From Halorutilales archaeon Cl-col2-1 (GTDB lineage Archaea; Halobacteriota; Halobacteria; Halobacteriales; Afararchaeaceae), in assembly GCA_041891055.1 (NCBI GenBank), contig CP169074.1, forward strand, positions 960,001-1,024,000: a stretch of 64,000 nucleotides of DNA, read 5' to 3'. Every line of letters begins with the position of its first letter. Position 1 is the stretch's first letter. Position numbers and translations under genes: made by a program. Of this stretch, positions 19,441 through 58,937 are shown in pieces. The notes beneath the pieces were generated by a model. It saw only the letters and a list, made by a program, of their open reading frames with translations. It was not told where the DNA came from and did not search any database.

Positions 19441-19586
19441 TGTTGACGCAAATCGAAGATTTGCGAAAGTCCCGAGATCTCCGATCTCGTGTGCTCGCTA
19501 ATCGGAGATTAGCGAAAGTTGTTAGATCTCCGATCTAACAGCCCGTGAATCTATGATTCACGAAGCCGAAAACCTGCGGTTTTCGG
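19441..19586. repeat. Array of six triloop hairpins inside the IS left-end stem
   Basis: CGCAAATC-GAA-GATTTGCG, CGAGATC-TCC-GATCTCG, TCGCTAATC-GGA-GATTAGCGA, TGTTAGATC-TCC-GATCTAACA, CGTGAATC-TAT-GATTCACG, CCGAAAACC-TGC-GGTTTTCGG. Confidence 0.93.
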
Positions 19587-19637
19587 AAGGGCGGGGAACT
19601 CGCGCTGCTTTTCGTTTAGACCTCCCACAACTGTTTT

Positions 19638-19660
19638 GTATACATATACGTATACATATA
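19638..19660. promoter_or_regulatory. Tandem GTATACATATA boxes, candidate vapBC autoregulatory operator
   Basis: Two 11-nt direct repeats, each with a GTATAC palindrome, immediately before the vapB ATG. Confidence 0.5.
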
Positions 19661-19661
19661 T

Positions 19662-19886
19662 ATGACAACGATACGGGTGTCCGAGGAAACTAAGAAACGC
19701 CTCGAAATGGAGAAAAGAGAGAACGAAAGCTTCGATGACGTCATACTACGACTGACAGACAGGGATAAATGGCAAGGCTTCGGTGCCCTAGAAGGAGGAA
19801 AAGACAGTAAGGAAGGGATGCAGAAGGTTCGAGAGGAGTTTAGCGAGGAGATGGACAGGGATGTAGAAGAGATGGAACAAGAGTAG
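19662..19886 (+). CDS. vapB: VapB-type antitoxin
   Basis: TTIRVSEETKKRL...KRENESFDDVILRL. Confidence 0.85.
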   Translation: MTTIRVSEETKKRLEMEKRENESFDDVILRLTDRDKWQGFGALEGGKDSKEGMQKVREEFSEEMDRDVEEMEQE

Positions 19887-19892
19887 AGTAGT

Positions 19893-20297
19893 ATGATCTG
19901 TCTGGATAATAACCTCCTGAGCGACTACCTAGATGGAAAAGAAGAAGCCCGAAAGTTTTTGAAGGAGTATGAATCCGAGCCCTGGGCTGTATCGAACATC
20001 GTGGTTTTTGAAGCCTACATGGGCGTTGTCCACGGATATATCGACGGAGACGTTGAAACTATCCGACAGGCAATAAAGTCCTCTATGGCGATCCTAGAGG
20101 TAACAGAAAGAACGGTTAATGAGGCTGTGGAGATCCAGAAAGAGCTTAGAAAGAAGGGGCACACTCTTGAGAAACCGGACTCCCTAATCGTAGCCAACGC
20201 TAGAGAGCATGGAGGGAGATTCGCTACAGCGGAGAAGCAGTTCTGGAATGATGATGTCAAAGAAGTGGTAGATGTGGTAAGATACGACGATCAGTAA
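19893..20297 (+). CDS. vapC: PIN-domain toxin VapC
   Basis: LDNN, E, DSLIVANA, T acidic PIN pattern downstream of vapB. Confidence 0.88.
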   Translation: MICLDNNLLSDYLDGKEEARKFLKEYESEPWAVSNIVVFEAYMGVVHGYIDGDVETIRQAIKSSMAILEVTERTVNEAVEIQKELRKKGHTLEKPDSLIVANAREHGGRFATAEKQFWNDDVKEVVDVVRYDDQ

Positions 20298-20465
20298 GCC
20301 ATCTAACTCCAAGACGAGTATCTCCGGGTCTTTAACACATCCCACAGAGAGTGACACAGCCACAGCTACGCGTCTGTGTGAGTGTAAGTCTGGGTTATCT
20401 TCTCAAAGAATAAAGAAAGGCTGTCTGTGTGTCTGTTCTAAGACCTACTCAGAGTAAGCGTGTGC

Positions 20466-23400
20466 TTACTCCTTTCTTCTGAGAGCTATGAGACCAGCGC
20501 CGATGAGGGCGATCAGAGTCGCTGCGACTCCGAATCCAGGCTGTCCCTGTCCGCCGCTCTCGGCTTCCTCAAGCTGGCTCTGGAGGTCGCTGTTCTCCTG
20601 CTCAAGCGTGTCGACCTGCGAGCTGAGGTTCTCGTTCTCCGACTGCGCGTCCTCAAGCTGCGTGTTGAGCTCCTCGTTCTGCGTCTCAAGCTCGTCTACC
20701 TGCGTGCTGAGCTCCTCGTTCTCGGTCTGGAGCTCCTCTACGTTGCTCTGGAGCTGACTGACTCTGTCTGCGAGTGTCGGCTTGTCAGAGAGCATCGCGT
20801 CGTTGCGCTCTCCTTCCGCGACTATCTCAACTGTGACTACGTCAGTGTTGTCTCCGTCGTCTGCTTCGATCTCGTAGGTTCCGGGCTCAAGTCCCGTTGT
20901 GTCTACCGAGACCGACCAGACTCCGCTCTCCATCGACCACTCGTCTGTGGTCTGGACGGGCATCTCGTTCATGCTAGGTCCGGAGACCGACTCAACACTT
21001 ATCGTGTTGTCGTCAGGTCTGAGGTTCGTCGTTCCGCGTACCATCATCGTCTCTCCTGCCTCTATCGGGACGATTCCCGTAATGTTGGAGTGCGACGACG
21101 GCACTACGTCGTTGATCGACGTACTCGAATCTGTGTAACGGAACGAGTCAGTGACTATGAGGTCGTCACTTCCGGTGTCCTCTGTCGTCTTCGAGAGGAG
21201 TATATCTAGAACCTGATCGTGGTTCTTGTTGGCTAACCCTAGACCTATATTCTTAGTTATATCGTAAGCTAGTGCACCGGCATCACCTGCTACGCTGTCT
21301 CCGTACTCACCGTCTCTGCCGGGGGCAACTGCGAAGATTGTGACATCGCCTTGACTTATGTCACCGAAGTCTCCCCAGTCCTCTTCTTCTATCTCGTAGT
21401 CGCTGTCAGTGGATATATCATCAGCGTAGACATTACCTCTCTCGTCAACCATCACTACTGCGACAGCCTCGGTTCCGAGAGCTTCACCAGTTATGTCTAT
21501 CGCGGAGTCTGTAGCCACCTGTCCGTTGACAGTGTGGAAGGTCGCCGAGAGACTGGGCTCGACAGTGCGTATCGAGCGCTGATTGGATGTTCCCTGGTTG
21601 AAGTCACTCGTGTCAAGCTCCGTCGCGTAGTCAGTACCGCCTTCAGTGACGAAGCCAGTTGAATCGGTAGTTCCGTCATCGTCAGTGACTGCAGCTCTCG
21701 AAGTGTCCTGCTTATCTATGATTCCTATTCTGTAGGTTCCTGAAATGCTGAGTATGTCACTACGGGCATCCAGCGCGACATCTTCTTCCTCCCACGTTCC
21801 GTCGGACTCAACCGTGTCAGTAAGTACACGTTGCCAGTCGCCTTCGTCTCTGACGTAGACTGCGACGTCATCGAGTCCCTGCGACGCTGTTCCGTTGAGG
21901 TCAACTTCGGAGCCTATCACGTACGTCGCTCCGGGGTTGTCTATAGTTACCTGTGCTTCCTCGACATTGAGCGTCTTGTCGTCTTCGTCGTCAGTAGCGA
22001 GGTCTATGGTACCGTCCGTAAGATCGTGGTACGCTGCGTTTATCGCTGCGCTAGATGTACTGTAGTCGTTTGCCGCGACTGTGCTCTCGTAGAGGTAGAC
22101 ATCAACCGACGTGTCGTCGAGATCCTGCGTGTCTATTCTTCCCGTAGCTACTCCTGTGGAGTCGTCTACCTCAACCATCGCAACTACGTAACCGTCCACA
22201 CGTCTGATATCCAGCGTGTCTCCAACATTACGGAAGACTCCGAGGGGATCGTTAGATCCAGCACTCGTGTCGACCGAGTCACGTAGGTCGTCTTCGTCTA
22301 TCGCGACTGCGTGGTAAAGACCCGCGTCAGACGCTCTGACAGTGTAGTCGACACGCTCTCCCTGTGTCGCACTGTCTTCTTCAAGCTCTAGGTACGGATC
22401 TTCCTGCGACGTTATTGATATCGTCGCTGTCCTTGTCGCGTCTCCGAAGTCAAGGCTGTCGACTCCGGCTACTTCTATCGTGTACTCTCCTGCTTCGAGA
22501 TCTCCTGTGTTTATCTCCCAGCGGTTACCTAAGTTATCATTAACCGTTCCTCCACTACGTGTGTCGGACTGACCCGTAGCTAGTGCTTCTCCGGTAACCT
22601 CTGTTCCCGTCGAGTCCATTACGCTGAGCTCGACGTCCTCTGCGGAGTCGTAGTTCCACGTCGTGCTGACGTAGAGATTTGTTCCTTCCTGGACTTCACT
22701 TCCTGCGACTCCCTGTCCCTGCTCGTTGTCAACATCCATCGACACTATGCGGGGCGTCGAGACTGTGACCCTACCGCCACCGTAGACTCCAGTCTCCTGG
22801 TTCTGCGGTATCGTGCCTACAAGGTCAAGCTGCTGTCCCTCGGCTCCTGAGTTCTCGTCTCCTGTGAGCGTGTTGGGTACGCTACCTGCACTGTTTACCC
22901 AGTGGACGTCATCTTCTCCCTGGTAGACTGTCGGGTTGTTCGCGAGGTCTATTGTTCCGCCGGGGTTGCCGTTTGCGTTATCTGTCGAATCCTGTGTCTT
23001 ACGGATTTCAGATGGCGTAGTCGGGGGTGTAGAACCACCAACTACAGTGTAAGTTGCAGAGGAAGCCGTTCCTCCGCCGAGTTCGACATCAACGGAACCG
23101 GTGTCACTGTCGGACTGTCCCGACAGGTCGGCTACTACCGTATACGTCGCGTCGGTACCACTTCCTGATGTGATATTGACGAACTGAACCTTCTCGTCGG
23201 TTCCGTCACCGTCAGTATCGTACAGGGTCACAAAATCGTCCTGTCCAGTGTCTGTCGGCGATACATCTACGTCAAAGTTGCTCTCTCCAAGCGTCACATT
23301 CGTCGCTCCGCTACCAACATTCGAAACCGTCACATCTATCGATACCCTGTCATCCAGACCGTCTCCATCCTGGTCGGAGAGGGTCGGATCAATATTATCA

Positions 23401-23495
23401 ACACTCTGTGCCGCTGCGGGCGCTGCAAACGCCGTCACCGACACAGCCACTACGAGTGCTATAAACATCGCAGTGATTCTGTTTTTCCTATTCAT
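20466..23495 (-). CDS. csg: Major cell-surface (S-layer) glycoprotein with PGF-CTERM anchor
   Basis: Sec signal, acidic Ig-like repeats (VYQGE, GTTNLRPDDNTISVE, PGTYEIEADDG), C-terminal QPGF-TM-LRRKE; structured leader and SD. Confidence 0.9.
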   Translation of the reverse strand: MNRKNRITAMFIALVVAVSVTAFAAPAAAQSVDNIDPTLSDQDGDGLDDRVSIDVTVSNVGSGATNVTLGESNFDVDVSPTDTGQDDFVTLYDTDGDGTDEKVQFVNITSGSGTDATYTVVADLSGQSDSDTGSVDVELGGGTASSATYTVVGGSTPPTTPSEIRKTQDSTDNANGNPGGTIDLANNPTVYQGEDDVHWVNSAGSVPNTLTGDENSGAEGQQLDLVGTIPQNQETGVYGGGRVTVSTPRIVSMDVDNEQGQGVAGSEVQEGTNLYVSTTWNYDSAEDVELSVMDSTGTEVTGEALATGQSDTRSGGTVNDNLGNRWEINTGDLEAGEYTIEVAGVDSLDFGDATRTATISITSQEDPYLELEEDSATQGERVDYTVRASDAGLYHAVAIDEDDLRDSVDTSAGSNDPLGVFRNVGDTLDIRRVDGYVVAMVEVDDSTGVATGRIDTQDLDDTSVDVYLYESTVAANDYSTSSAAINAAYHDLTDGTIDLATDDEDDKTLNVEEAQVTIDNPGATYVIGSEVDLNGTASQGLDDVAVYVRDEGDWQRVLTDTVESDGTWEEEDVALDARSDILSISGTYRIGIIDKQDTSRAAVTDDDGTTDSTGFVTEGGTDYATELDTSDFNQGTSNQRSIRTVEPSLSATFHTVNGQVATDSAIDITGEALGTEAVAVVMVDERGNVYADDISTDSDYEIEEEDWGDFGDISQGDVTIFAVAPGRDGEYGDSVAGDAGALAYDITKNIGLGLANKNHDQVLDILLSKTTEDTGSDDLIVTDSFRYTDSSTSINDVVPSSHSNITGIVPIEAGETMMVRGTTNLRPDDNTISVESVSGPSMNEMPVQTTDEWSMESGVWSVSVDTTGLEPGTYEIEADDGDNTDVVTVEIVAEGERNDAMLSDKPTLADRVSQLQSNVEELQTENEELSTQVDELETQNEELNTQLEDAQSENENLSSQVDTLEQENSDLQSQLEEAESGGQGQPGFGVAATLIALIGAGLIALRRKE

Positions 23496-23507
23496 GTTTT
23501 GTTTCAC

Positions 23508-23629
23508 CTGTTTCGGACGTTATGTCCGAACCCTCGGTTAGCCAAGATGGGCTCCGGTGAAAGGAGCCATAGACCTATGGCTAACTGGGTTCACGGTGAA
23601 AGAATACTCTGGACATCTTAAATACTTTC
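23508..23629 (-). promoter_or_regulatory. csg BRE/TATA promoter and structured 5' UTR
   Basis: Minus strand GAAAGTATTTAAG (23617-23629); stems GTTAGCCA/TGGCTAAC, GGCTCC/GGAGCC, TTCGGAC/GTCCGAA; AGGTGA SD just downstream. Confidence 0.7.
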
Positions 23630-23714
23630 TGTTAAAACGTCAGACGGGCGTCAGATGAGAAAATCAGTATATCTGGAGAAAAATGTTCATGAATAAGAGT
23701 ACACGTAGTTACAG

Positions 23715-24923
23715 TTAGTTCCGTGCTCGGTTCCAGTCTATTATAGACTGTATTATCTGCGTGCGTGAGTACTGCTTCCCGCCAATCTCTCCGTTATTTT
23801 TGTTCCACTCGATAATTCTTTGGACGACTGTATTTCTGTTAGTAGGTCTATTGCTTTGGGTTGCAAACGGATTATTTGATTCGAGGGATCCAGTGTTATT
23901 CTCGACTGTGTAAGTCTCAGATAACATCTCACCACTTCCTAGTTCAACATTAACAGATCCGGTTTCTCCATCTGCTTGATTAGAGAGATTAGCTATAACG
24001 GTGTATGTACCGCTAGCAGTACCGACTTCGACGAACTGAACCTTCTCGTTGGTTCCGTCACCGTCAGTATCAAACGTACTCACAAACTGCGCTTGGTTCC
24101 CGTCAGTGGTGTCTGTCGGCGATATATCTACGTCAAAGTTGCTCTCTCCAAGCGTCACATTCGTCTCTCCGCTACTCGCCTCTGATACGGTACTATCCAC
24201 GACTATCTGATCATCTAGACCATCTCCATCTGTGTCTGACAAAGTTGTCCGTATATTCTCTATGCCCGTGTCATCTCCTGAACTACCACTAACTGCTGTA
24301 CTGAGGTTAAACCGAAGATTAACATTTGCCGGATAGAACCCTGGCTGGGTGTTATTGTTCGCAATAAGATACTGACTGTCAGTCTGCGAACCGGTACCAC
24401 AGTAGCCACTCGTAGAACAGTCAGTCCCATCTTGGTAGATAAACGGAATGACCTCCATCTCAACACCATTCGACATGAATGTTTCTCCGACCGAGTACTC
24501 CGACTGATTAGGAGTTAGAGTGTCGAATGTCACATTTGAACTCGGATTAGTCTTTGATCCAAACTCAACATTATCTATCACCATTTCTTGACCACCAACG
24601 CTGAAGGATCCGATGTCACCAGTAACCTCAACGGTTCCTCGTTCACCAGTATCTGTACTATCCTGAGTCACATCTACAGAAGCACCACCTACATCCCTAC
24701 TGTTAACTCCATCAGGCGGACTCTCAGCGAAAGATGAGATATTATAGACACGATCCCCATTCACCTCGATATTGAGATTCCCTCCACCTTGGTAATAGTC
24801 GAACGCAATCCTCTCGACAGATGTGTTGTTACTATCCTGTGCCGCGACAGTTCCAACGCCCGACGAAAGAACGATTGCTGTGACAAAAGCAGCTATAAGA
24901 ATGGTTTTCGTACTATCTATCAT
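23715..24923 (-). CDS. Secreted protein: beta domain + shared domain X + C-terminal WN module
   Basis: Sec signal ending TVAA-Q; domain homologous to the Csg N-terminus; no TM anchor; start ATG 24923. Confidence 0.8.
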   Translation of the reverse strand: MIDSTKTILIAAFVTAIVLSSGVGTVAAQDSNNTSVERIAFDYYQGGGNLNIEVNGDRVYNISSFAESPPDGVNSRDVGGASVDVTQDSTDTGERGTVEVTGDIGSFSVGGQEMVIDNVEFGSKTNPSSNVTFDTLTPNQSEYSVGETFMSNGVEMEVIPFIYQDGTDCSTSGYCGTGSQTDSQYLIANNNTQPGFYPANVNLRFNLSTAVSGSSGDDTGIENIRTTLSDTDGDGLDDQIVVDSTVSEASSGETNVTLGESNFDVDISPTDTTDGNQAQFVSTFDTDGDGTNEKVQFVEVGTASGTYTVIANLSNQADGETGSVNVELGSGEMLSETYTVENNTGSLESNNPFATQSNRPTNRNTVVQRIIEWNKNNGEIGGKQYSRTQIIQSIIDWNRARN

Positions 24924-25035
24924 ACAGAATATAATATTATTCCAGACAAATATATCTAACCCAGTCAGATCAGACAGCCAGAAGATTGGTTTATTAAGCG
25001 ATCTTCGCCGTGCTTTGGTAGCGTTGTGCTCGGAG

Positions 25036-35909: not shown

Positions 35910-35913
35910 CGTT

Positions 35914-39336: not shown

Positions 39337-40740
39337 TTATAATATTTCTCTCAAGGTATCGAGGTCATAAAGTCGGACGTCATCCCTCTCTTTCGCCGTG
39401 TCTCTGAGATCCCGGCTGAAACCCGACCTAGAGAAGAGAGCGAATGTCTCGTCTCTGTCCTCGCCTCCCCATCTGACTTCGGACGACTTCTTCTCAAGTC
39501 TTCTGAGGAGATCGGCGTCCACCTGTCTCTCCGTCCACTTACACTCACCCAGGAGAAGACTCGCCTCGCTCTCGTCGAGACCTACTACGTCAATCTCGTT
39601 CTCTCCATACCACCAAGATCCGACTGACGAACCGTCGAACATAGACGAGTTAGCTACGGCTTCTCTACAGATGTCTTCGAATACCCTGCTCGTGTACACG
39701 TCTATACCCTCTCTTACTGTGTCGAGAACCATCTCGACTGATCCCCTTTCGAGGTCATCGAGGTTGGGGTACACGAATCTGAACCAGAAGCTGAAGAAGT
39801 TGTCTTTGATCTCGTAGATCCCTCTCTTCTTTTTCTTCTGAGACGCTGTGACAGGCACGGACTTCTCGACTAGATCGAGGCTCTGGAGCTTCTTGAGGTA
39901 CCTCGACATGTCCTTAGCCTCTCTGTGTGTCGAGTTAGCTATCTCGGTTACTGTCGTAGCCCCGAACGACATCGCTTCGAGTATGTCCATATAGCTCGAA
40001 GGCTCCCTCAACTCCTGACGCAGGAGAAACTCGGGCTCTTCGTAGAGAAAAGTGCCCTTCGACAGAATCTCGTCACGTATGTTCTCGAAGAGACCTCTCT
40101 GAGGATCGAACTTCTCGAGGTATGCCGGTATGCCTCCGAGAACGCCATATGCGCGTATCTTGTCATCGAACGGATACTCGGAGTCGGAGAAGAAATCAGT
40201 GCTGTCTCCGAACTCTAGGGGACGAAGCCTCCACTGTCCGGTTCTTCTGCCATAGAGGGGACTCTCGTAGCTAAGGACATCCTCCTCCATCATGGATATC
40301 GATGAGCCAAGGAGAACTAGCGATATCTGTGTGTCTTTCAGAATCTCGTCCCAGATAAGCTGAAACACTGACGGTACCGAGTCATCCTTTTCGACGAGGT
40401 ACGAGAACTCGTCTATCACGACGATAAGCTCGGTGTCATGACTTCTCTCACGTATGTACTTGAAGCAGTCGTCGAAGCTATCGACATCAGGCGGTATGTC
40501 GTCGAAATGTTCTGAGGCGTCTTTGGCGAGTCTCCGGGCATTAGACGAGGTGCCTCTCTGGTCAGCTAAGAAGTATATGCTCTGACTGTCGGGGACTTTT
40601 TTCTGAGTAACGTGGTTAATCAGCTCCGTCTTGCCGACTCTTCGACACCCATAGATAACGAGTAACTCGCGGTCGTTGGATCCGAGCTTCTCCTCAAGCC
40701 ACCCGATCTCCTCGTCACGGTTTACAAACTTTCGGATCAC
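39337..40740 (-). CDS. Archaeal ATPase + wHTH + DUF234/PD-(D/E)xK protein
   Basis: FVNR, YGCRRVGKT, IDEF, PLYGRRT, FWFRFV, EIDVVG...GECKW; probable GTG start 40740. Confidence 0.88.
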   Translation of the reverse strand: MIRKFVNRDEEIGWLEEKLGSNDRELLVIYGCRRVGKTELINHVTQKKVPDSQSIYFLADQRGTSSNARRLAKDASEHFDDIPPDVDSFDDCFKYIRERSHDTELIVVIDEFSYLVEKDDSVPSVFQLIWDEILKDTQISLVLLGSSISMMEEDVLSYESPLYGRRTGQWRLRPLEFGDSTDFFSDSEYPFDDKIRAYGVLGGIPAYLEKFDPQRGLFENIRDEILSKGTFLYEEPEFLLRQELREPSSYMDILEAMSFGATTVTEIANSTHREAKDMSRYLKKLQSLDLVEKSVPVTASQKKKKRGIYEIKDNFFSFWFRFVYPNLDDLERGSVEMVLDTVREGIDVYTSRVFEDICREAVANSSMFDGSSVGSWWYGENEIDVVGLDESEASLLLGECKWTERQVDADLLRRLEKKSSEVRWGGEDRDETFALFSRSGFSRDLRDTAKERDDVRLYDLDTLREIL

Positions 40741-40792
40741 GATTATATAATCGTAGTCCGAAAAGATAGATGTTTCGGGACAGCAGTTCAAT

Positions 40793-40915
40793 AGTTTGTA
40801 TCGCGGGTTGTCGGATTCAACCCCGAGGTCAAGTCAAGGAAAATCTTTGATTTTCCGTATCCCAAAAAGCTCTGCTTTTTGAAGACCCCGGGGCATTCTC
40901 CTTGTACCTCTGTAA
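40793..40915 (-). mobile_element. Solo IS200/IS605 left-end relic with a double-hairpin insertion
   Basis: Stem CCCCGAGGTC/GACCCCGGGG; minus strand continues GAATCCGACAAC, like GAGCCGACAAC after the left-end stem at about 57355; inner hairpins GGAAAATC-TTT-GATTTTCC and CAAAAAGC-TCT-GCTTTTTG. Confidence 0.7.
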
Positions 40916-42320: not shown

Positions 42321-42770
42321 TCACTCCCAGAACGATCTGACACGAGAATCCAGTTCATCTATCACTAGAGTCAAAACCTCTCGCCAGTCATTCGAAAAAT
42401 CAGCATCCTCCCCGGGCTTCTCTGCTACTGGTGGTGGGTGAAAATGGTCTCTCGTGTTGTGGCTGTTGGGGTGTCTGTCCCATCGACACTCCCAAGTATT
42501 ATCGTTATTATGTTGCTCTCTGTAGTGGACATTAAAGTCGTCTGTCTTGTACCATCGAATCTGTATATATGCAGTTTGGATATGTGAGGGGAAGTATCCT
42601 AAGTTGTATTCAGCAATTACCGAGTTGGGTGATCCTTTGGGACGAACCTCGACATCGGAGAAACGCTCACTCCCTGAAAGATATCCTCCTATCCGATCAA
42701 GAACATCGGTGTCTATCGACGCCACGTCTTTATCGGTTAGTTCGTCATCGGACTGACCTCTGTCAGGCAT
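42321..42770 (-). CDS. His-rich hypothetical protein, putative toxin partner of the upstream HTH gene
   Basis: FNVHY.E...RWDRHPN.H...HFHPPP; paralog of 44140-44592. Confidence 0.7.
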   Translation of the reverse strand: MPDRGQSDDELTDKDVASIDTDVLDRIGGYLSGSERFSDVEVRPKGSPNSVIAEYNLGYFPSHIQTAYIQIRWYKTDDFNVHYREQHNNDNTWECRWDRHPNSHNTRDHFHPPPVAEKPGEDADFSNDWREVLTLVIDELDSRVRSFWE

Positions 42771-43344
42771 TTATACCAGTATCAGTATCAGTACCCAGAC
42801 CGCCGCTTGTTTTTTCTTCACGCAGTGCTGTCTCAAGCAGTTCAGCACGTTCTTCGAGAGTCTGCCACTCAGAAAGGTCGTCCCATAGATCCTCAACTGT
42901 AGCTGTTTCACTAGCTTCTTTTAACGAGACTTCTCCCGGTTCATCTTCTCCGAACCTTTCTCGGTACTCTCTGATTGAGTCGATGGTCTCTTTGAGTTCA
43001 TCTAGTATCTCTTCATCGGAGTGATGGCTTCGTATCTGTTCGACTTGACGCCAGCGGAGAAAGGACTCGTTTCTCTCGTACTGTGTTGGTCTGTTACTGT
43101 GTTTTCGTACCAATCCCAGATCAGCAAACCAGTCTAGGTAGTCTCGTGCTGTCTCTGTGTCACAGCCTGCATGTTCTGCAATACTTGAGACTTTTGTAGG
43201 CTCACGTACCTGCATTATAACATCCATCAGACGCTCCCTGGTTGATCCTCCTTCAAACATCTCTTCGGGATCCTCCCAGTTACTGAAGTCCGGCTTTTCA
43301 CCATCCGGTCTAGATCTATCCGATATGTCTGTCAAATCCCTCAT
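42763..43344 (-). CDS. wHTH/coiled-coil protein (DUF7342-like)
   Basis: SIAEHAGCDTETARDYL HTH; EYRERFG; paralog of 44603-45166. Confidence 0.75.
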   Translation of the reverse strand: MRDLTDISDRSRPDGEKPDFSNWEDPEEMFEGGSTRERLMDVIMQVREPTKVSSIAEHAGCDTETARDYLDWFADLGLVRKHSNRPTQYERNESFLRWRQVEQIRSHHSDEEILDELKETIDSIREYRERFGEDEPGEVSLKEASETATVEDLWDDLSEWQTLEERAELLETALREEKTSGGLGTDTDTGINA

Positions 43345-43428
43345 AGATACCTTTACAGGTTAGACTGTAATATATCTACTGGGGGCTGTATTATTTCAGA
43401 GTATGGGTAGAAGAGTAAGTCTGCAGAT

Positions 43429-43530
43429 CTAGAATCTCCGCCAGTCCTGAACCTGTATGCCGTCTATCCTCTCGAAATGGGACACGTTTGGTGTCAAGAC
43501 TATGAGCTGGTTCACTAACCCTGTTGCTCC
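43429..43530 (-). pseudogene. vapC: vapC C-terminal relic
   Basis: Manual translation GATGLVNQLIVLTPNVSHFERIDGIQVQDWRRF*; N-terminal part missing, joined to the vapB end. Confidence 0.7.
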
Positions 43531-49791: not shown

Positions 49792-49792
49792 G

Positions 49793-50058: not shown

Positions 50059-51189
50059 ATGAAAATACTCCGAGTCGCACAGAACCTGTATCCCGAGGTG
50101 CCCGGGGGAGGTACGTACCATGTCCACGCTATGAGTCGTGATCAGGCGGAGATGGGACACGACGTGACCGTTCTTACTGTCTCGGATATTCATCAATCTT
50201 CGATTGATGAGCCTGCGGATCAAAGATTAACAGACGACGACAGTCTGCCTCGCCGAGAGGAGAGAGATGGGTATACAGTCGTACGTAGAAAGCCGACTGT
50301 CGGGGTCATAGGCAACGAGATATCAACTGGTGTTGGGAAGTTTCTACGTGATGCGTCGGGATTCGACGTGATTCACGCACACTCGCATCTGTACTTTTCT
50401 ACTAACTTAGCCGCGGTGAAACGCCGTCTCGGGGACATACCTCTGGCGATCACCAACCACGGACTCTACTCACAGAGCGCGCCCGAGTGGGTCTTCGACC
50501 TCTATCTGCGTACTGTGGGTCGGTGGACGTTTAACACGGCTGACGTCGTCTTCTGTTATACAGACGAGGACAGAAACAGGGTTCGGGAGTTCGGCGTCAA
50601 CTCACGTATAGAGGTCGTGCCAAACGGAGTCGACACCGAGCGGTTTACTCCTTCAGGTGAAGAGAGCGATCTCATCGATACTGACTCGGAGGTCGTCCTG
50701 TTTGTGGGTCGTCTAGTAGAGGGTAAACGTCCACAGGACGCCGTCGAAGCCGTCTCACGTCTCTCCGAGAGTAGGGATATCGAACTGTATGTCGTCGGAG
50801 ACGGCCCTATGCGTGACGATCTAGAGGAGACCGCAGACGAGAACGTGAGTTTTCTGGGGCAGGTGCCCTACGACGAGATGCCACGTGTCTATCGGTCGGG
50901 TGACGTTCTGATACTGCCTAGCCGTGCCGAGGGTCTGCCACGGACTGTTCTAGAGGCATTTTCGTCGGGGATTCCGGTCGTGTCGAGTCATCTGGAGCAT
51001 ACTGCTTCTATCGTGCAAGAAGGTGGTGAGACAGTCGAGGTCGGGGATGTTGAGGGTTATAGAGAGGCTCTGGAGAGTGTGTTGTCTGAGAAGGATAAGC
51101 TTGGTGTGAGAGGACGTGAGACCGTAGTCGACGGATTTCGATGGCAGGACACAGTCGAGGAGACGACAGATGTGCTCAAACAGATATGA
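50059..51189 (+). CDS. GT4 glycosyltransferase carrying an in-frame 48-nt hairpin insertion
   Basis: HAHSH, NGVD, FVGRL..GK, EGLPRTVLEA. Confidence 0.92.
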   Translation: MKILRVAQNLYPEVPGGGTYHVHAMSRDQAEMGHDVTVLTVSDIHQSSIDEPADQRLTDDDSLPRREERDGYTVVRRKPTVGVIGNEISTGVGKFLRDASGFDVIHAHSHLYFSTNLAAVKRRLGDIPLAITNHGLYSQSAPEWVFDLYLRTVGRWTFNTADVVFCYTDEDRNRVREFGVNSRIEVVPNGVDTERFTPSGEESDLIDTDSEVVLFVGRLVEGKRPQDAVEAVSRLSESRDIELYVVGDGPMRDDLEETADENVSFLGQVPYDEMPRVYRSGDVLILPSRAEGLPRTVLEAFSSGIPVVSSHLEHTASIVQEGGETVEVGDVEGYREALESVLSEKDKLGVRGRETVVDGFRWQDTVEETTDVLKQI

Positions 51190-52673: not shown

Positions 52674-52722
52674 ATGTTATTTTTGTGGGCATTCATATGC
52701 AGTCTAGTATTAATAAAATGTA

Positions 52723-53841
52723 TCATGGACTATCTTTGGATAATTGTCTGTAAATTTGAGTATATGAGTCCGACATGGTTTTCACATCGAAGTACTCCTT
52801 AGCACGCTCGTAACCCGCTTTTCCGTATTGGTTTTGCACCTCATTTTCGGCGATCTCATTTATAGCTTCAAGGAGACTATCGACGCGACCCAGAGGGTAG
52901 AGTATTCCTGTTTCACTGTCGTGTACTGCTTCTCTCACGCCTGGTATATCTGGAGCAACGACAGGCAATGATGCAGCCATCGCTTCAAGGATTGTTATTG
53001 GATGGCCCTCCGCTTTGGATCCAGACACAAAAGCATCAGCTGCTGCATAGTATGGGTGCACCTCAGGAACACGACCAGTAATATGGACAGTGTCCTGAAC
53101 ACCATGAGATTTAACTTCAGATCGGAGTTCCTTTTCAAGTTCCCCATGGCCCACGATGATAAGATGAGCATCCGTCTTACTCTGAGCAAAAGCATCGATG
53201 AGGTTCGACTGTCCTTTGACTGGTACATAACGACCGACATTGAGAAATATCGGTGTTTCCTGATCAATGTTGAGTTGCTCCCGGATATTAACGCCATCCG
53301 ATATTTTAACCTTTTGAGCGAATTTCTCAACATTGATGCCATTATATACTGTACACCAGTCGTCATCAAGCTCACCAGGTTCATGGGCGCTCCCAGTAAA
53401 TGCTCGTTCAACTCCCTGGGAAACTGCCACTGTCTTATCATCCAAAGAGCGTGTCAATCTCTCGGTTGTACGGGTCACAGGGTGATAGTTCGATGGGACA
53501 TTATGTTGAGTACTAACGATACGAACATCATTCATTGACCCAATGAGCCGTCCAAGAGTCTGTGCATACGGGAGATGAAGATGAAGAATGTCTATCTGCT
53601 TTTCACGAAGGTAGCTGTTGAATCGTTTTACAGCACGAGGGTCAAACCGAAACTCCTCACCAAAATGTCGAACTGGTACGCCTGCCTCTTCTATTTCTGG
53701 TACTAGGGCATCTTCGTCACCAAAAAATCCAACACTGAATTGAATTCGATCACTGGCACTGACGAGGTCACGAACCATATTCTCAGCACCCCCATACGGG
53801 AGGGCAGTAATTAATTGACAGACAGATATATCTTTAGCCAT
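52723..53841 (-). CDS. GT4 glycosyltransferase
   Basis: GGAE, NVGRY...KG, EGHPITILEAMA. Confidence 0.92.
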   Translation of the reverse strand: MAKDISVCQLITALPYGGAENMVRDLVSASDRIQFSVGFFGDEDALVPEIEEAGVPVRHFGEEFRFDPRAVKRFNSYLREKQIDILHLHLPYAQTLGRLIGSMNDVRIVSTQHNVPSNYHPVTRTTERLTRSLDDKTVAVSQGVERAFTGSAHEPGELDDDWCTVYNGINVEKFAQKVKISDGVNIREQLNIDQETPIFLNVGRYVPVKGQSNLIDAFAQSKTDAHLIIVGHGELEKELRSEVKSHGVQDTVHITGRVPEVHPYYAAADAFVSGSKAEGHPITILEAMAASLPVVAPDIPGVREAVHDSETGILYPLGRVDSLLEAINEIAENEVQNQYGKAGYERAKEYFDVKTMSDSYTQIYRQLSKDSP

Positions 53842-53922
53842 CAATCATTGGTCTTCAACAAAGTATTTAAATGAATCGACATCGTGCAATTCATTAGACG
53901 AAAGAGAATACCTCTTAATCAG

Positions 53923-54849
53923 ATGAGTGTGATTTCACTATCCAGAATTGGACGAGGGCTCGAAAGCCCCAATTTGTTCCTCCGCGAATTAAATAGATTC
54001 TATTACAAACAGTTATATACTCAATCGTATAACACGGGCGGCATCGATATCTTTGAACAGGACTGGGACAACCTCATAGTCTTAGATGCCTGCAGATACG
54101 ATCTGTTTGAGAATACAGCTGATCTCGAAGGTCAGCTCGAATCTCGTATTTCACGTGCATCAAGTACGCCTGAGTGGCTCAGAGCAAATTTTAAAGGACG
54201 TAAGCTGCACGACACAGTATATATTACAGCAAATCCACAGCTTTTCCGACACAGAGAGGAAATAGATGTGGAATTTCACGATGTAATCAATATCTGGCAG
54301 GAGGACGGCTGGGATGAAGAGCATCAAACGGTACTTCCAGAAACGGTTACAAAGAGAAGTATTGAAGCAGCAGACAAGTACCCCAATAAAAGATTGCTCA
54401 TCCATTATATTCAGCCGCACTACCCATTCCTGACGAGTATTGATCAACCGTTTGAGGATAGCCAGGCGTTTCTAAAGCCAGATGAAGCTGGAAGCTGGCA
54501 TCAGGCAGTGATTGGAAAAATTGACCCAGACCCAGAGATTGTGTGGCAGGCATATCGCGATACACTAGAAAGGGCGCTCCCGCATGTTGAAGAGCTGGTT
54601 CAGGGTATAACTGGTAAATCAGTAGTTACTGCAGACCACGGGAATATGGTCGGCGAACGTGCTACTCCATTTCCCATTCGGGAGTGGGGTCACCCACGTG
54701 GGATTTATACTGATGAGCTGGTGAAAGTTCCGTGGCTTGTGATCGAAGGAGAGAGTCGAAAGATTACTGCCAGAAAGCCAGTCGAAAGTACAAATAGTGT
54801 CACGGATAAAGTTGTACAGGATCGACTCGAGAAGTTAGGATATACATGA
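53923..54849 (+). CDS. Sulfatase/alkaline-phosphatase-superfamily protein
   Basis: LIVLDACRYD, QPHYPF, TADHGN, RLEKLGY. Confidence 0.8.
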   Translation: MSVISLSRIGRGLESPNLFLRELNRFYYKQLYTQSYNTGGIDIFEQDWDNLIVLDACRYDLFENTADLEGQLESRISRASSTPEWLRANFKGRKLHDTVYITANPQLFRHREEIDVEFHDVINIWQEDGWDEEHQTVLPETVTKRSIEAADKYPNKRLLIHYIQPHYPFLTSIDQPFEDSQAFLKPDEAGSWHQAVIGKIDPDPEIVWQAYRDTLERALPHVEELVQGITGKSVVTADHGNMVGERATPFPIREWGHPRGIYTDELVKVPWLVIEGESRKITARKPVESTNSVTDKVVQDRLEKLGYT

Positions 54850-55985
54850 GTGGTATTGTTTTCGTAACTGTTGTTGATCTTTCAATCATTTCTGGAAGTG
54901 GAGTCGCCACACGTGAGATTATTCGAGGGATAGTCAGTGTAACAGATGAGCCGGTCATTGTTCTCTGCCCGGAGCCTAAAGAGAAGCTACCGGAGATGCT
55001 TGAAAGTCAGGTTGATGAGTTCATTTACTTACCAACGAGAACAAACCCTGGATCACCACGCTGGCACCTCAAAACCGAGTTCAGTATACTACGCAAATTG
55101 GGAAGGCTTTATAAAAATAGAGTCCCTTCACTTGTTGTAACTCGTTTATCGCCTTCTACTCTATTCCCAGCACTGTTTTCTACTATTTTCAATATCCCCC
55201 ATATATTGTTAATTAGGGGATGGGTTCGGAGAAAAGACAGCAGAGAAGATACAAAATTTGGATCACTCGTCGAACAATTAGTAAAAATGAATGTTCGCCT
55301 CTCAGACGAAGTCTACGTTGCGTTTGACGAACTCAAGGAGTGGGTAGATCCATATCGTAGCAACTCCAAGTCACCCGTGAAAGTGTTACCGAACGCAGTC
55401 GATCCTGATATTTTTTCGCCACAACCTCTCAGCTCTACCCGTGCTAAGATTGGAATTGATGCAGAAAAGTTTGTTGTTGGTTTTGTTGGATCGTTAGCTC
55501 CGCGTCATGAACTCAAGACATTATTCAGGGCCGCGGCAAAAACCGATGATGTTTATCTATTGATTGTTGGTGATGGTGTACGCCGGAACAGCCTTGATCA
55601 ACTTGCAGCTGACCTTGGGATCGATGACCGTGTGACGTTTACTGGTCAAGTCGATCATGAAGAAGTCCCAAAATACATCTCTTCTTTCGACGTCGGCTAT
55701 GGAGTTGTGAGCTCAGATAAAGCATCAAATCCAATTAAGTGTTATGAGTATCTATCATGCGAAAGACCAGTTATAACAAGCCAGAAAGAAGAATTTGAGT
55801 TTATTTCAAAAATAGACGCAGGCGTGCTAGTAAGTACTGTGTCAACTAAGGAAGTGTATGAGGCTATCGAATATTTGCGGAACCAGCCACGGAAGGAACG
55901 GCTTGAAATGGGAAAGACTGGTCGTTCGTATGTACAGGAACACTTTACTTGGAAACGCTTGGCTAACGAGCTTATCATAATATGA
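54846..55985 (+). CDS. GT4 glycosyltransferase
   Basis: PNAVD, GFVGSL, PIKCYEYLS. Confidence 0.88.
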   Translation: MSGIVFVTVVDLSIISGSGVATREIIRGIVSVTDEPVIVLCPEPKEKLPEMLESQVDEFIYLPTRTNPGSPRWHLKTEFSILRKLGRLYKNRVPSLVVTRLSPSTLFPALFSTIFNIPHILLIRGWVRRKDSREDTKFGSLVEQLVKMNVRLSDEVYVAFDELKEWVDPYRSNSKSPVKVLPNAVDPDIFSPQPLSSTRAKIGIDAEKFVVGFVGSLAPRHELKTLFRAAAKTDDVYLLIVGDGVRRNSLDQLAADLGIDDRVTFTGQVDHEEVPKYISSFDVGYGVVSSDKASNPIKCYEYLSCERPVITSQKEEFEFISKIDAGVLVSTVSTKEVYEAIEYLRNQPRKERLEMGKTGRSYVQEHFTWKRLANELIII

Positions 55986-55998
55986 TATATCAATTTTT

Positions 55999-56679
55999 GG
56001 CTTTGGTGAATCGCCATACGCAGCTTGATTTACTGTTTTATGGCATGTTTGATGTTATAGACAGAGCAGATCAGGACGAGTTCACGAAACTCCCTGTACC
56101 AGGCACGCGCACGCACGGCTTCACGAAGCACAGCTTCGTTAGCTGAAAATCTTCGATTTTAAGCTGTGCCGAGCGTGCGCTTGATGTTTGAGAAGACGGT
56201 TTCAGACAGGATATTTGACCGTAGAGAGACCCATCGATTCTGGTGTCGCAAATCTGAGATTTGCGTACATCCAAAAATCAGAGATTTTTGAATATGCTGT
56301 GCACCTGATCGATGGGTCGGAACTCACGGTGTTTGGTGAGTGGTGCTTCTCGGTAGGATTTCTCCAAGTAAATCCGTAGACAGTGGAGAGAAACGATGGC
56401 GTGAATCCGCGAAGCCGCCACCCTGCTCTGGGGCGGCGACTTCGCTCCGACCACCGACATCATGAACTCCATTCATGAACCTCAAAGCTCCACTTTGAGA
56501 CAGCGTTTTTAGCTAATGTCAAGGCTCTATCAGTGAAGTGCTGTGAATCGAAGATTCACATGCGTTGGGACGCTTGCGTTCCAAAACGGGAGATTTTGGA
56601 CATGTCATCGAAAACTTCCCGCTTCATCTCCTTTGCATTAGTGGCTTAATCCAACGTAGTCTAGTGATTCACCAGAGCC
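55999..56679 (-). mobile_element. Internally deleted IS5-family element with four double-hairpin insertions
   Basis: TIRs GGCTTTGGTGAATC (55999-56012) / GATTCACCAGAGCC (56666-56679), 13/14 match; minus-strand transposase pieces MSKISR, LAKNAV, GGRSEVAAP, SLHCLRIYLEKSYRE, KHREFRPID, ETVFSNIKRTLG, AVRARAWYREFRELVL. Confidence 0.85.
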
Positions 56680-56747
56680 CTATCAATAGCTCTAGGAAGG
56701 ACATCTGCCCGGTTGTAAGTTGGAATTACAACACTGACCGTGACCAT
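56680..56747 (-). pseudogene. GT2 glycosyltransferase N-terminal stub cut by the IS5 relic
   Basis: MVTVSVVIPTYNRADVLPRAID runs directly into the TIR. Confidence 0.8.
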
Positions 56748-57209
56748 ATTAATTTTGAATTCAGTATCAGAGGACATGAAAATGTTGGTTCACTCATCGG
56801 CGTTCTAAGAAAAAAGATCAATCCCAAATACTCTCACATCTCCGAGGTCTAAGTGAGTACGAGTTTGAATTAACTATCATTGGGGACGGGGGACTTAAGC
56901 CGATCCTTAGACAAGAGTTTGAGAACCGGAATCTCTCTTCACACGTGAGTTTCAGAGGATTCGTGTCCAACGATCTACTCCCTGAAGTCTATGCGAGTCA
57001 TGACCTCTTTCTTTATCCGGGTATCTGGGACGAGCCGTTTGGCAGGGTCTTTATAGAGTCACTCGCAACAGGCACTCCCGTAGTCTCCACGGATATCGGT
57101 TCGACCGAAGAGATCTTAGGAGACGCTGGTGTTACGGTGGAGCCAGACGTCGACAGGTTAGCCGAGGCAGTTCACCTAATTGCGAGGCGGAGGCCACGTC
57201 CTCAAGGAG

Positions 57210-57343
57210 TCATTCGAGAATCGAAGATTCTCGTGATCGAGCGAATCAAGGATTTGCGAGTCTTCAGAAATCTTCGATTTCTGTGATGCAGAAAACTCTA
57301 AGAGTTTTCCAGCACAAGCGAATCGAAGATTCGCATACGCAGT
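57210..57343. repeat. Five triloop hairpins inside the IS left-end stem
   Basis: CGAGAATC-GAA-GATTCTCG, GCGAATC-AAG-GATTTGC, CAGAAATC-TTC-GATTTCTG, GAAAACTC-TAA-GAGTTTTC, GCGAATC-GAA-GATTCGC. Confidence 0.9.
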
Positions 57344-57451
57344 AGGGCGGGGAAGAGCCGACAACGCCGCAACCCAACACAGGCAATAGCATCCTGACTC
57401 CCGAACAAACCAAATTTTTATAAAAAAGATAGTTCAATATGTGAAATAGAG

Positions 57452-58762
57452 ATGGAGGTCATTCGCACGGTCAAGGTCAAACTCGACGTGCCTGACCAGC
57501 GACGGGACGACCTTCATCAGACCGCCGACCAGTTCCGCTACTGCGCCAATCAGACCAGTGAGTGGGCGTGGCGCGACTCCTCGGACGAATACTGCGTCAC
57601 CAGCAAAGCGAAAGCCGAAGACGCTCTCTACGACCGTCTTCGAGACGAAACCGACCTCACCGCCAATCTCGTCCAGAAAGGGATTCGGCGGGCTATTGAG
57701 GCAGTCAAAAGCGGTGTCGAAGCGTGGAAACGAGGTGACCGCACCAGCCAACCACACTTCGATGCGTGGAGCATCGTTTATGACAAGCGAAGCGCCACCT
57801 TCCACCGCGACCGTGTGTCCCTCTCGACCGTGGATGGACGAGTCGAATGCGAGTACGTCCTACCCGACAACACGGAGGGGACGCCGATTGGTGACTACCT
57901 ACTGAACAAGAACTTCGAGTTCCGAATGTCCACGCTCCAGTACGACCGCTTCGAGGACGAGTTCTACCTCCACGCCCGCATGAGACACACCCCAGAAAAT
58001 GGCGAAGAAGAGCGTTCAAGTTCGGACACGCACAGTGAGAACCCGACGGTTCTCGGCGTGGACTTGAACGTTGACGGCTACTTCGCCGTCACCAGCACGG
58101 GTGCGTTCATCGAATCAGCGGACTACCTCAACCACCGTCGGCGTGAGTTCGAGCAGACCCGTGGAAGCCTCCAAGAGACAGGCACACGGTCGGCGCATCT
58201 GACCATCCAGCAGATGAGCGACCGCGAACACCGCTGGATACAGGACGTACTCCACTCGGTTGCGAACGACATTCTCCGCGAAGCTCGTCGGGTGGACGCG
58301 ACTCATATCGCGTTCGAGAACCTGACGGGTATCCGTGACCGCATGGTGAACGCCAAGCGATTCCACGCGTGGGCGTTCCGCCAACTCTACGAGTACGTCG
58401 AGTACAAAGGTGAAGCCGAAGGCGTGACTGTCGAACAAGTGAGTCCTGCGTACACGAGTCAGCGGTGTTCGAAGTGCGGATGTACGCTGGAGGAGAATCG
58501 CCCGTCGAAACACGAGTTCTGCTGTCAGAAGTGCGGGTACGAACTCAACGCCGACTACAACGCGAGCAAGAACATCGCTCGCAAACTCGCCAAGGGTCTC
58601 CGCTCGGGGCAAAAGTCTCCGAGTGGAGGAGCCACCTATCAACTGGCTCTAACGTCGGGGACGCTGAACCTGAACGGCGATTTCCACGCCTCCGACCGTG
58701 TGTCGGCAGAAGGGGAGTCCACCGACAAACCCCATCGTGAACGAAAGTTCACGAGCCTCTGA
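57452..58762 (+). CDS. tnpB: TnpB RNA-guided endonuclease
   Basis: GVDLN, AFENL, NADYNA RuvC residues; CSKCG/CQKCG Zn finger. Confidence 0.95.
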   Translation: MEVIRTVKVKLDVPDQRRDDLHQTADQFRYCANQTSEWAWRDSSDEYCVTSKAKAEDALYDRLRDETDLTANLVQKGIRRAIEAVKSGVEAWKRGDRTSQPHFDAWSIVYDKRSATFHRDRVSLSTVDGRVECEYVLPDNTEGTPIGDYLLNKNFEFRMSTLQYDRFEDEFYLHARMRHTPENGEEERSSSDTHSENPTVLGVDLNVDGYFAVTSTGAFIESADYLNHRRREFEQTRGSLQETGTRSAHLTIQQMSDREHRWIQDVLHSVANDILREARRVDATHIAFENLTGIRDRMVNAKRFHAWAFRQLYEYVEYKGEAEGVTVEQVSPAYTSQRCSKCGCTLEENRPSKHEFCCQKCGYELNADYNASKNIARKLAKGLRSGQKSPSGGATYQLALTSGTLNLNGDFHASDRVSAEGESTDKPHRERKFTSL

Positions 58763-58937
58763 GGTTCCCTCAGAGACATCACAAATCGTAGATTTGCGAG
58801 CAGTCAGAAGCTCTGCTTCTGACGACACCCTCAACGAGCGTTCGGAAATCTCTGATTTCCGAGCCATCAAACTCGTAGAGTTTGAGACGTTCGCGAATCT
58901 TCGATTCGCGTGCCTGTAAATCAAAGATTTACAGACG
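58735..58937. repeat. Two blocks of four hairpins in the IS right end (omega-RNA region)
   Basis: 58735-58827 and 58841-58937, e.g. GTCAGAAGC-TCT-GCTTCTGAC, TCGGAAATC-TCT-GATTTCCGA, CGCGAATC-TTC-GATTCGCG, CTGTAAATC-AAA-GATTTACAG. Confidence 0.92.

Follow-up and report, generated by a model that had tools for sequence, protein, structure and literature searches.

In the REPIN/RAYT system, doublets of repetitive extragenic palindromes (REPs) are moved by a single-copy Y1 transposase. Insertion sequences (ISs) of the IS200/IS605 family, such as IS608 and ISDra2, insert 3' of a specific sequence without duplicating it; IS608 uses guide sequences, and its cut sites lie much farther from the hairpin foot than 1-3 nt. 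Palindrome-associated transposable elements (PATEs) were reportedly treated by Filee, Siguier and Chandler in 2007, and small dispersed repeats of cyanobacteria are said to have been treated by Elhai in 2008. Here we analyze a family of short insertions, typically ~48 nt long and made of two hairpins, which we call modules, in a 64,000-nt stretch of the genome of Halorutilales archaeon Cl-col2-1 (contig CP169074.1, positions 960,001 to 1,024,000). This whole stretch is termed the window, and positions are given in its numbering. The modules probably represent a mobile repeat that is non-autonomous, is defined by structure and is of the same kind as REPs, REPINs and Rickettsia palindromic elements (RPEs). 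The closest described family is that of the CGTC-tagged REPs, RPE-4 and RPE-6 of Rickettsia included (Di Nocera et al. 2013, PMC3733652; this and the other papers are cited for the passages drawn on here). A 2024 review on MITEs (transposable elements of the miniature inverted-repeat type) lists in such a passage only a few archaeal reports (PMC10969869), and in the open-access literature we found no REP-like hairpin doublets described from archaea beyond Dyall-Smith et al. 2011 (PMC3119063).

The window is part of a 2.06-Mb genome that comprises four contigs (C1 and C2 among them) and is rated 99.5% complete. A second genome of the same genus (G001, hereafter the congener) was used for comparison.

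Triloop hairpins in the window and the genome

A sequence-only reading of the window had reported hairpins at ten sites, nearly all with 3-nt loops closed by a C-G pair and with the cores AATC/GATT, AAGC/GCTT, ACTC/GAGT or AACC/GGTT. We read all ten sites and found the reported number of hairpins at each; the description of loop, closing pair and core is true of nearly all of them. Imperfect hairpins occur at four of the sites: the second one of 50187-50234, the two of 56460-56502, one within 57210-57343 and two of those in 58735-58827. The window holds 32 perfect hairpins with a stem of at least 7 bp and a loop of 3 nt, compared with 5.2 +/- 2.4 (maximum 10) in 50 dinucleotide-preserving shuffles.

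A genome-wide search for short-stem triloop hairpins, which the reading had proposed, revealed an excess throughout the genome: 229, 139, 141 and 3 perfect loop-3 hairpins have stems of 7, 8, 9 and 10 bp, respectively. Against the 141 with 9-bp stems, each of the other loop sizes from 0 to 8 nt contributes 8-37. Smaller excesses at loops of 5 and 7 nt fit triloop hairpins whose closing pairs have opened; a scan for imperfect hairpins (8 of 9 pairs) had a background of ~400-600 per loop length, too high to be of use. The core AATC/GATT is found in 124 of the 285 loop-3 hairpins with stems of at least 8 bp. Most loops are GAA, GGA, AGA, AAA, GTA or their complements, and they come in complementary pairs (GAA 32/TTC 32, GGA 24/TCC 20, TCT 22/AGA 16, AAA 22/TTT 19, TAC 14/GTA 12).

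The stems were also evaluated by extension from the core, with no stem presupposed. At 150 of 194 AATCNNNGATT sites at least 3 further pairs form, none gains more than 5 (no stem goes beyond 9 bp), and the extended sites display 45 different outer stems, mostly of the form TCG.../...CGA, CG... or CTG.... Control cores were extended at 0 of 18 and 1 of 52 sites. The 9-bp ceiling, the triloop and the C-G closure, combined with so many outer stems, argue that the family is set by structure more than by sequence. Five of six modules folded as single-stranded DNA (ssDNA) form two hairpins each (z = -3.6 to -6.7); the decayed module in a glycosyltransferase gene (50187-50234), folded as DNA, gives z = -2.2. 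Triloops of the type d(C-GNA-G) are very stable in ssDNA.

Filled and empty sites

The reading had set the boundaries of the inserts by eye, had held that their removal restores recognizable coding or stem sequence, and had called for alignment to insert-free homologs. Such alignment yielded empty sites in four kinds of comparison, with exact boundaries, and both IS hairpins and coding sequence are restored. Within the genome, BLAST of 178 cluster regions returned 13 split matches, ten of which were aligned as filled and empty pairs; their inserts measure 47, 48, 51, 49, 73 (three hairpins), 51, 48, 49, 47 and 49 nt. One end of a tnpA/tnpB element of the IS605 type, a G+C-rich hairpin with the stem CCCCGCCC...GGGCGGGG, provides a nested series, with two hairpins at C2:69900-70080, four at C1:154580-154790, and six in the 146-nt array of the window (19441-19586). 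The extra units of this series are 49 and 47 nt long (19470-19518 and 19519-19565 in the window), each preceded by AAG and each ending in AAG. The 51-nt module at 56246-56296, whose CGCAAATC and CAAAAATC hairpins stand in the loop of a GACCCATCGAT...ATCGATGGGTC palindrome, has an empty copy at C1:305228-305369. The 43-nt module at 56460-56502, with mutated closing pairs in both hairpins, has intact copies at C1:369040 and C1:1300189.

The window was also compared with metagenome contigs (not reads) of three salt-lake runs from two studies (X1, X2 and X3) at 88% likeness or more; the runs hold 0.09-0.19 of the sampled words of the window, and the uncovered parts are uninformative. Contigs of all three runs join 56119 to 56166, which omits the module at 56121-56165. 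Other joints lead from 56243 to 56300, with five other letters between, and so lack the module at 56246-56296, or from 56456 to 56500 and from 56538 to 56587, where the modules at 56460-56502 and 56539-56586 are skipped. Two joints at the end of a tnpB element (58884 to 58933 and 58890 to 58939) skip 48 nt each, and a third, from 58731/58733 to 58936 with 12-14 nt between, gives that end with none of its eight hairpins. Insert sizes measured from these joints are 43-51 nt. Loose contig ends at 57238 and 57260 indicate that other copies hold different hairpins there, and a low-depth joint from 50186 to 50443 skips 256 nt. These joints are empty alleles of the modules as the reading had delimited them, its boundaries lying 0-4 nt from the four joints between 56119 and 56587. 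Precise gain or loss at many unrelated places thus bears out its claim of a minimal, structure-defined mobile unit.

Insertions within genes

The 48-nt module at 50187-50234 (+ strand) consists of a TCATCAATC hairpin and a decayed hairpin of the CTGTTAATC type. It lies in frame in a family-4 glycosyltransferase gene (50059-51189), to which it adds the 16 residues DIHQSSIDEPADQRLT, missing in 18 of 18 aligned homologues. Modules with TCATCAATC and CTGTTAATC hairpins were found at six unrelated loci and in both orientations, each within the frame "(C)G / T ... ACG /". S-adenosylmethionine (SAM) synthase carries a 17-residue in-frame insert when compared with the solved structure 4l4q_A; this module is common to both genomes of the genus, and its decay has begun. 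A pyridoxal phosphate (PLP) enzyme of the AONS/KBL family has a 16-residue in-frame insert relative to the solved structure 8s1y_A. The orthologue of its gene in the congener is exactly 48 nt shorter and is 92.5% identical elsewhere (1074/1161). That in-frame inserts in three genes are missing from homologues or structures shows insertion rather than deletion. Stop-free frames of at least 200 codons contain 23 of the 113 clusters. Some of these are tnpB frames, and at least one, a native segment resembling NAD synthetase, is a false positive; those checked against homologues are the glycosyltransferase, SAM synthetase and PLP enzyme genes only.

The repeat unit

The unit is a doublet of ~48 nt with the layout (C/A)G / T-hairpin-GC-hairpin-AC(G/A). 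With weaker neighbours added, 417 hairpins fall into 170 loci, in clusters of one (57 loci), two (60), three (19), four (17), five (5), six (7), eight (2), nine (2) and fourteen (1). Unrelated palindromes, split pairs and CRISPR repeats account for most of the single-hairpin loci, among which genuine single AATC hairpins are rare. The proposal that length increases in steps of a hairpin pair stands insofar as even sizes dominate, though not strictly, and nearly all inserts measure 43-51 nt. Spacers are of two classes, inner ones around GC (GC, GCC/GGC, GCCA/TGGC and the like) and junctions around ACGT or AAGT.

Clustered hairpins number 237; in 85 of them ACG or ACA stands at one end and a GC tail at the opposite end, with single-side backgrounds of 8% and 15%. 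The tetramer that precedes the stem in 89 oriented monomers is most often ACGT (18), CGTC (17) or CGTT (14), followed by TCGT (8), CCGT (7) and TGTC (3); AAG/CTT variants of this tag occur in one IS end, that of the tnpA/tnpB element. The tail at the untagged end is GC, GCC/GGC or GCCA/TGGC. In 21 of 49 two-hairpin clusters, GC but no tag lies between the hairpins and one or both outer sides bear a tag; the spacer has a tag-like motif in only 13 of 49. The two hairpins of a module are unlike each other and freely combined, and only the 3-nt CGT/ACG ends are inverted. The monomer is thus a tag (CGTC, CGTT or ACGT) followed by a stem of up to 9 bp, whose inner part is A/T-rich and whose last pair, C-G, closes a loop of 3 nt, and then by a GC(C) tail. 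As a rule the mobile unit is a dimer with its tags outward, CGT-hairpin-GC-hairpin-ACG.

Ends and targets

When filled sites are oriented alike, the left flank is ACG, CCG, TCG or AAG, and the right end is mostly ACG, otherwise ACA (3 of the ten aligned elements) or AAG. The reading had noted correctly that inserts start with T between direct repeats of 2-4 nt; the repeat is mostly CG, ACG or AAG, and the frame "(C/A)G / T ... AC(G/A) /" explains both observations. The apparent length of the flanking repeat varies from 0 to 4 nt. Such ends fit an element that, like those of the IS200/IS605 family, inserts 3' of a short site resembling its own end, and they fit a 2-bp duplication as well; the ACA ends, where the empty site is CG, make a simple duplication less likely.

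Thirty-six of the 113 clusters are located within 300 nt of a tnpA- or tnpB-like coding sequence, compared with 2.5% of random positions, and the insertion points are loops or arms of palindromes. Among the targets are both end hairpins of tnpB elements (in a clean one, CCCCGACC-CTTGA-GGTCGGGG and GCCTCGGGG-CTTGA-CCCCGAGGC), the tnpA-side IS end hairpin, two palindromes of a 680-nt repeat with terminal inverted repeats (TIRs), and the tnpA open reading frame of the congener. In the window, a 51-nt two-hairpin module (40834-40884) occupies the loop of a CCCCGAGGTC...GACCCCGGGG hairpin in a solo IS605-type end of ~100 nt; it recurs in the tnpA-side end hairpin of an IS605-type element of the congener, where the ~100-nt end is repeated. 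The TIR-bounded repeat of ~680 nt (55996-56679), whose ends read TGGTGAATC..., hosts four modules, among them one of 45 nt (56121-56165) at the loop of an 11-bp palindrome and one of 48 nt with two hairpins (56539-56586). The remaining sites surround a tnpB element that apparently splits a glycosyltransferase gene: five hairpins, one imperfect, at its upstream end (57210-57343); four, in 93 nt, overlapping the last tnpB codons and the stop codon (58735-58827); and another four, making two modules in 97 nt, in its downstream end hairpin (58841-58937).

In the congener, an insert of ~100 nt with four hairpins splits two tnpA copies (L128 on C7 and L129 on C49) immediately downstream of the conserved HFVWC. 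One has a stop in the insert; the other is open through it and then meets a second insert with a stop.

Occurrence in other genomes

The single-hairpin motif GNAAATCNNNGATTTNC has 63 matches in the host genome, 61 in the congener and 1-22 in 26 of the 39 other genomes of the order; the reversed pattern, used as the control, has zero matches in all 41. Across the phylum, 401 genomes were sampled; the motif is present in 178 of them and the reversed control in 5. Expansions occur in three other genera, with 68-90, 38-49 and 18-26 copies, and such patchiness across genera is typical of mobile DNA.

Prokaryotes were scanned, with one genome per species, for two AAATC-N3-GATTT cores 8-20 nt apart, which gave at least 136 matches in at least 119 loci. 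A structure filter required both stems to have at least 7 bp and the spacer at most 8 nt. Among the matches listed, 52 in 48 loci passed this filter, and 48 of the 48 loci have archaeal titles. These loci include Halopenitus, Haloparvum, Methanobacterium, Methanovirga, Methanolliviera, Methanosarcinales and Methanohalobium, as well as Nanoarchaeota, Aenigmatarchaeota, Woesearchaeota and Nanohaloarchaea; the bacterial matches listed are bare 5-6-bp cores or tandem repeats. A Methanolliviera locus combines CAAAAATC and CGCAAATC hairpins, almost the same pair as at 56246-56296 of the window. Several methanogen modules have GCAT in front instead of ACGT, which suggests lineage-specific tags on one design.

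Two other kinds of hairpin assemblage were encountered. G394, a 1.8-Mb genome from another family, contains 49 dispersed GCAAATC-N3-GATTTGC hairpins (L133-L144) in mosaics of other small hairpins, each preceded by a motif like CGCT(G/A/T)AGG, including one 109-nt tandem array; these mosaics may be a separate archaeal REP-like family. In viral contigs, 98 stretches match the double-core pattern. The structured ones come from giant-virus bins, with a few from elsewhere, and comprise tandem arrays of 24 nt as well as doublets with long stems; no relation to the archaeal family was recognized. In IMG/VR giant-virus bins (13 loci noted) the 24-nt arrays are built of GAAAAATC-N3-GATTTTTC hairpins, and one bin also has triloop hairpin doublets with stems of 11-15 bp, often at contig ends.

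Mobilization and alternative explanations

If the modules are mobile repeats, a unit would land directly 3' of CG, less often of AG, and would for that reason appear bounded by CG, ACG or AAG. A new copy would recreate the target site at its own end, so that arrays would grow in pairs. Landing would be preferred in palindromic DNA (the end hairpins of IS200/IS605 and TnpB elements, the TIR element, the tnpA gene), and within genes the in-frame copies would survive. That the unit moves as folded ssDNA is suggested by the GNA-like loops and their complements, by how stable d(C-GNA-G) triloops are, and by the palindromic targets it prefers. A nuclease/ligase specific for hairpins and acting in trans would cut the unit at the tag and rejoin it there. 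A putative dumbbell-shaped ssDNA intermediate is plausible.

The sequence-only reading had named TnpA as a possible trans-acting mobilizer. The tnpA gene of the window (19011-19418, + strand) is the sole IS200/IS605 Y1 transposase gene found in the genome, which also has ~30 tnpB loci. It scores 159.5 bits on the IS200/IS605 model NF033573, and 26 bits on the RAYT model, whose cut-off of 80 rules out a RAYT identity. Its element has hairpins on one side only, inside the IS end. TnpA is the only recognizable candidate enzyme in the host genome; it may be the mobilizer, though we lean against it, and elsewhere some other enzyme would have to be assumed. The proposed link to TnpA has so far found no support: the hairpins of the IS differ from those of the modules, some hosts have no tnpA, and hairpin numbers do not track the presence of tnpA among the 41 same-order genomes. 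When tnpA or tnpB was sought beside modules in other archaea, only 1 of the 119 pattern loci listed had a tnpA-like match, 2.3 kb from the module. That the gene is absent now does not exclude past action.

Several observations weigh against movement of the modules as ssDNA units, or against the enzyme proposed for it. A Y1 domain or tnpA is found in 7 of the 16 same-order genomes with at least 5 hairpin motifs and in 9 of the 25 with fewer. Three of these genomes (99, 93 and 99% complete), with 11-14 motifs each, gave no Y1_Tnp match, and no tnpA or tnpB match was obtained in G394 (one contig) or G253, which belong to another family, are 98% complete and have 49 and 47 motifs, with the caveat that the GCAAATC hairpin is there part of other REP-like mosaics. 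The end hairpins of the IS elements themselves are G+C-rich, with CTTGA or ACG loops, unlike those of the modules, and the putative cut sites of the modules are only 1-3 nt from the hairpin foot. In 26 inter-cluster intervals scanned for a gene flanked by modules, as in a REPtron, no candidate enzyme was seen, the frames not having been run against family models; the recognizable long frames were mostly tnpB-like or the open frame of the 680-nt TIR element. Quantization by pairs is imperfect, given the 19 triplets and the 73-nt three-hairpin insert, and to this extent the proposed length steps do not hold. The orientation of the loop depends only weakly on that of the tag (on the tag-5' strand, 58 of 89 are pyrimidine-rich), so that the strand specificity predicted by an ssDNA mechanism is not evident. 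The metagenome contigs may be other copies or other organisms, and a target duplication of 2 bp would account for the flanking CG...CG just as well.

An unlikely alternative is that the modules are minimal PATEs, in which the left and right end hairpins of an IS200/IS605 element were fused by deletion of the core and are moved by TnpA. Strain-specific insertions of 52-bp, terminal-only forms of HqIRS46/ISHwa23 in Haloquadratum, which cause no target duplication, are a precedent (PMC3119063, in the passages concerned), and the modules agree with it in size, in the want of a clear duplication, and in having a conserved left site and a similar right end; tnpA and numerous tnpB loci are also at hand. 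However, neither the clean tnpB ends with their CTTGA loops nor the tnpA-side IS605-type end, CCCCGCCC-ACG-GGGCGGGG, resemble module hairpins, and derivation from the two ends of a local IS is ruled out by these clean ends. The two hairpins of a module combine freely, genuine single AATC hairpins are rare, and the hairpin is present in genomes that lack both tnpA and tnpB. A full-length element whose own ends are triloop hairpins of the AATC type was not found in this genome, the only one searched for it.

Mobile status of another sort, as a MITE that lacks TIRs, depends on a DDE transposase and duplicates 2 bp (CG or AG) of its target site, is improbable. CG, ACG or AAG does stand on both sides of most filled sites, and the unit CGT-hairpin-GC-hairpin-ACG is two-fold symmetric. 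Its hairpins, though, are not inverted copies of each other, the ACA ends at CG sites and the inconstant repeat length do not suit a fixed duplication, no matching transposase ends were found, and targets in hairpin loops and arms are a better fit to recognition of a single strand.

We consider it similarly improbable that the hairpins are structures selected by the host, either as protein-binding or cruciform sites or as RNA hairpins that disable IS605/TnpB elements. The AAATC-N3-GATTT core is common to several archaeal phyla, and modules split tnpA in the congener and sit in the RNA-coding end of tnpB elements. On the other hand, insertions in housekeeping genes and decaying copies look selfish or neutral, no Rfam family covers the modules, and we know of no protein partner of the hairpin. 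A host-selected role of this kind was proposed for the small mobile repeat SMR-A, in a passage of Dyall-Smith et al. 2011 (PMC3119063).

That nothing here is mobile, the hairpins having arisen by slippage, template switching or gene conversion between IS copies and the empty sites by precise deletion between short repeats, is very improbable and largely refuted: deletion classically acts on hairpins between short direct repeats, loops are often inverted, those of complementary sequence being equally numerous, and some hairpins seem swapped between copies, but one module type occurs at six unrelated loci, three conserved genes have in-frame inserts missing in homologues, and the tags are conserved, with a like design in distant archaeal lineages.

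The reading of the modules as a mobile repeat could be extended to all archaea, a proposal that we make tentatively and regard as rather doubtful. The triloop doublets of ~48 nt would then be the archaeal counterpart of the bacterial REPs and RPEs, with tags that differ by lineage (ACGT/CGTC in this genus, GCAT at methanogen loci). They would be moved by a single-strand hairpin enzyme that is neither IS200/IS605 TnpA nor RAYT, and would live as parasites of TnpB/IS605 hairpins that add 16-residue loops to essential proteins. If this is true, mobile hairpins like REPs and RPEs are not confined to bacteria, and a common design (9-bp stem, AAATC-N3-GATTT core, doublets) extends from haloarchaea to methanogens and DPANN. 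Modules in the RNA-coding ends of tnpB elements and in tnpA may modulate or disable RNA-guided nucleases and their transposons. Housekeeping enzymes would also gain in-frame insertions of 16 residues from them. Assemblies break at modules, as at contig ends in the congener, and annotation can be misled by them.

Neighbouring features of the window

The tnpB gene divergent from tnpA (17662-19035, - strand) has an RNA of the sot2652 type at its 3' end (17595-17783, - strand, 171.7 bits), the sole Rfam match; no module lies inside it. The sot2652 RNA (sense-overlapping transcript) is the guide-RNA-type transcript that IS1341-type elements make. A second tnpB (57452-58762, + strand) belongs to the IS1341-type element that is flanked by hairpin arrays. 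Element and arrays (~57200-58975) apparently split a glycosyltransferase gene (56945-57286 and ~58990 onward), whose frame resumes after them. The 680-nt TIR repeat has at least 5 further copies in the genome. Some are longer, with ~440 additional bases at position 56344 and an open frame of 201-214 codons there; beside these, the copy in the window looks like an internal-deletion derivative.

Between 40001 and 60000, the window matches the congener only at 40001-40791 and 42487-43497 (98-99%), and the rest has no counterpart there. Rich in glycosyltransferase genes and lower in G+C, this region looks like a variable cell-surface island. Two adjacent copies of ~83 nt (76% identical) lie at 20563-20729 within an open frame (20466-23507, - strand), with a related copy at C1:1897532-1897614. 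Outside the window, at G000:C2:22989-23604, ...CAATGTAG CAGAAGGCTGTTAGCCTTCTG AGAC is repeated every ~75 nt, which looks like a CRISPR array.

Comparison with known systems

The likeness to IS200/IS605 elements (IS608, ISDra2) lies in insertion 3' of a short sequence, a similar right end, an apparent lack of duplication, end hairpins and an ssDNA logic. Unlike in IS608, the hairpins of the modules are 1-3 nt from the ends, which leaves no room for guide sequences, and they differ from those of the resident IS. With REPINs the modules share a doublet of short palindromes as the replicating unit, precedence of structure over sequence, and a single-copy Y1 gene in the host genome. In contrast to RAYT, the local TnpA is of the IS200/IS605 type, part of an IS with tnpB and not flanked by repeats on both sides; the tag is not GTAG, and the doublet is ~48 rather than ~100 nt long. 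TIRs related to the ends of a resident transposon, as expected of a MITE, are lacking.

As SMR-A of Haloquadratum walsbyi is described in the passages used, its targets are the near-terminal palindromes of PATEs and IS605-type elements and its mobilizer is a puzzle, both as for the modules, and it makes no duplication, as seems true of the modules too; it is set apart, by description, by its length of ~110 bp, prominent inverted terminal repeats and copies that are more than 95% identical, whereas modules have 43-51 nt and at least 45 stem variants (PMC3119063). The terminal-only PATEs of the same account, compared by description only, are 52 bp long, much like the modules in size, and apparently mobile.

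The CGTC REPs, as presented in the passages drawn on (PMC3733652), resemble the modules as follows. They have an unpaired CGTC tag with a TGTC variant (the paper also gives CCTC) and 8-9-bp stems, and the end without the tag has a short tail. Most dimers have the tags outside, and the partners can be 1-2 bp apart. Intragenic copies are in frame, their dimers encoding ~20-30 residues; dimers also sit within other palindromes, and they do not flank any transposase gene. Their loop, though, is 4-5 nt rather than 3, their stem has A-T pairs at positions 1 and 2, which modules do not have, and the 3-nt tail CCA resembles GC(C) without being identical. Arrays, common among modules, are called rare, and the text names bacterial phyla only, the word archaea being confined to its reference list, whereas the hosts of the modules are archaea. 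The modules thus work like CGTC REPs but, given loop size and the A-T stem start, are not filed with them. They offer a tractable system for finding what moves tagged palindromes that have no dedicated transposase, a question left open for the CGTC repeats in the same passages (PMC3733652). What is notable in the modules, beside the known REP and RPE kind, is their archaeal breadth, their parasitism of TnpB/IS605 hairpins and their in-frame insertion in essential genes.

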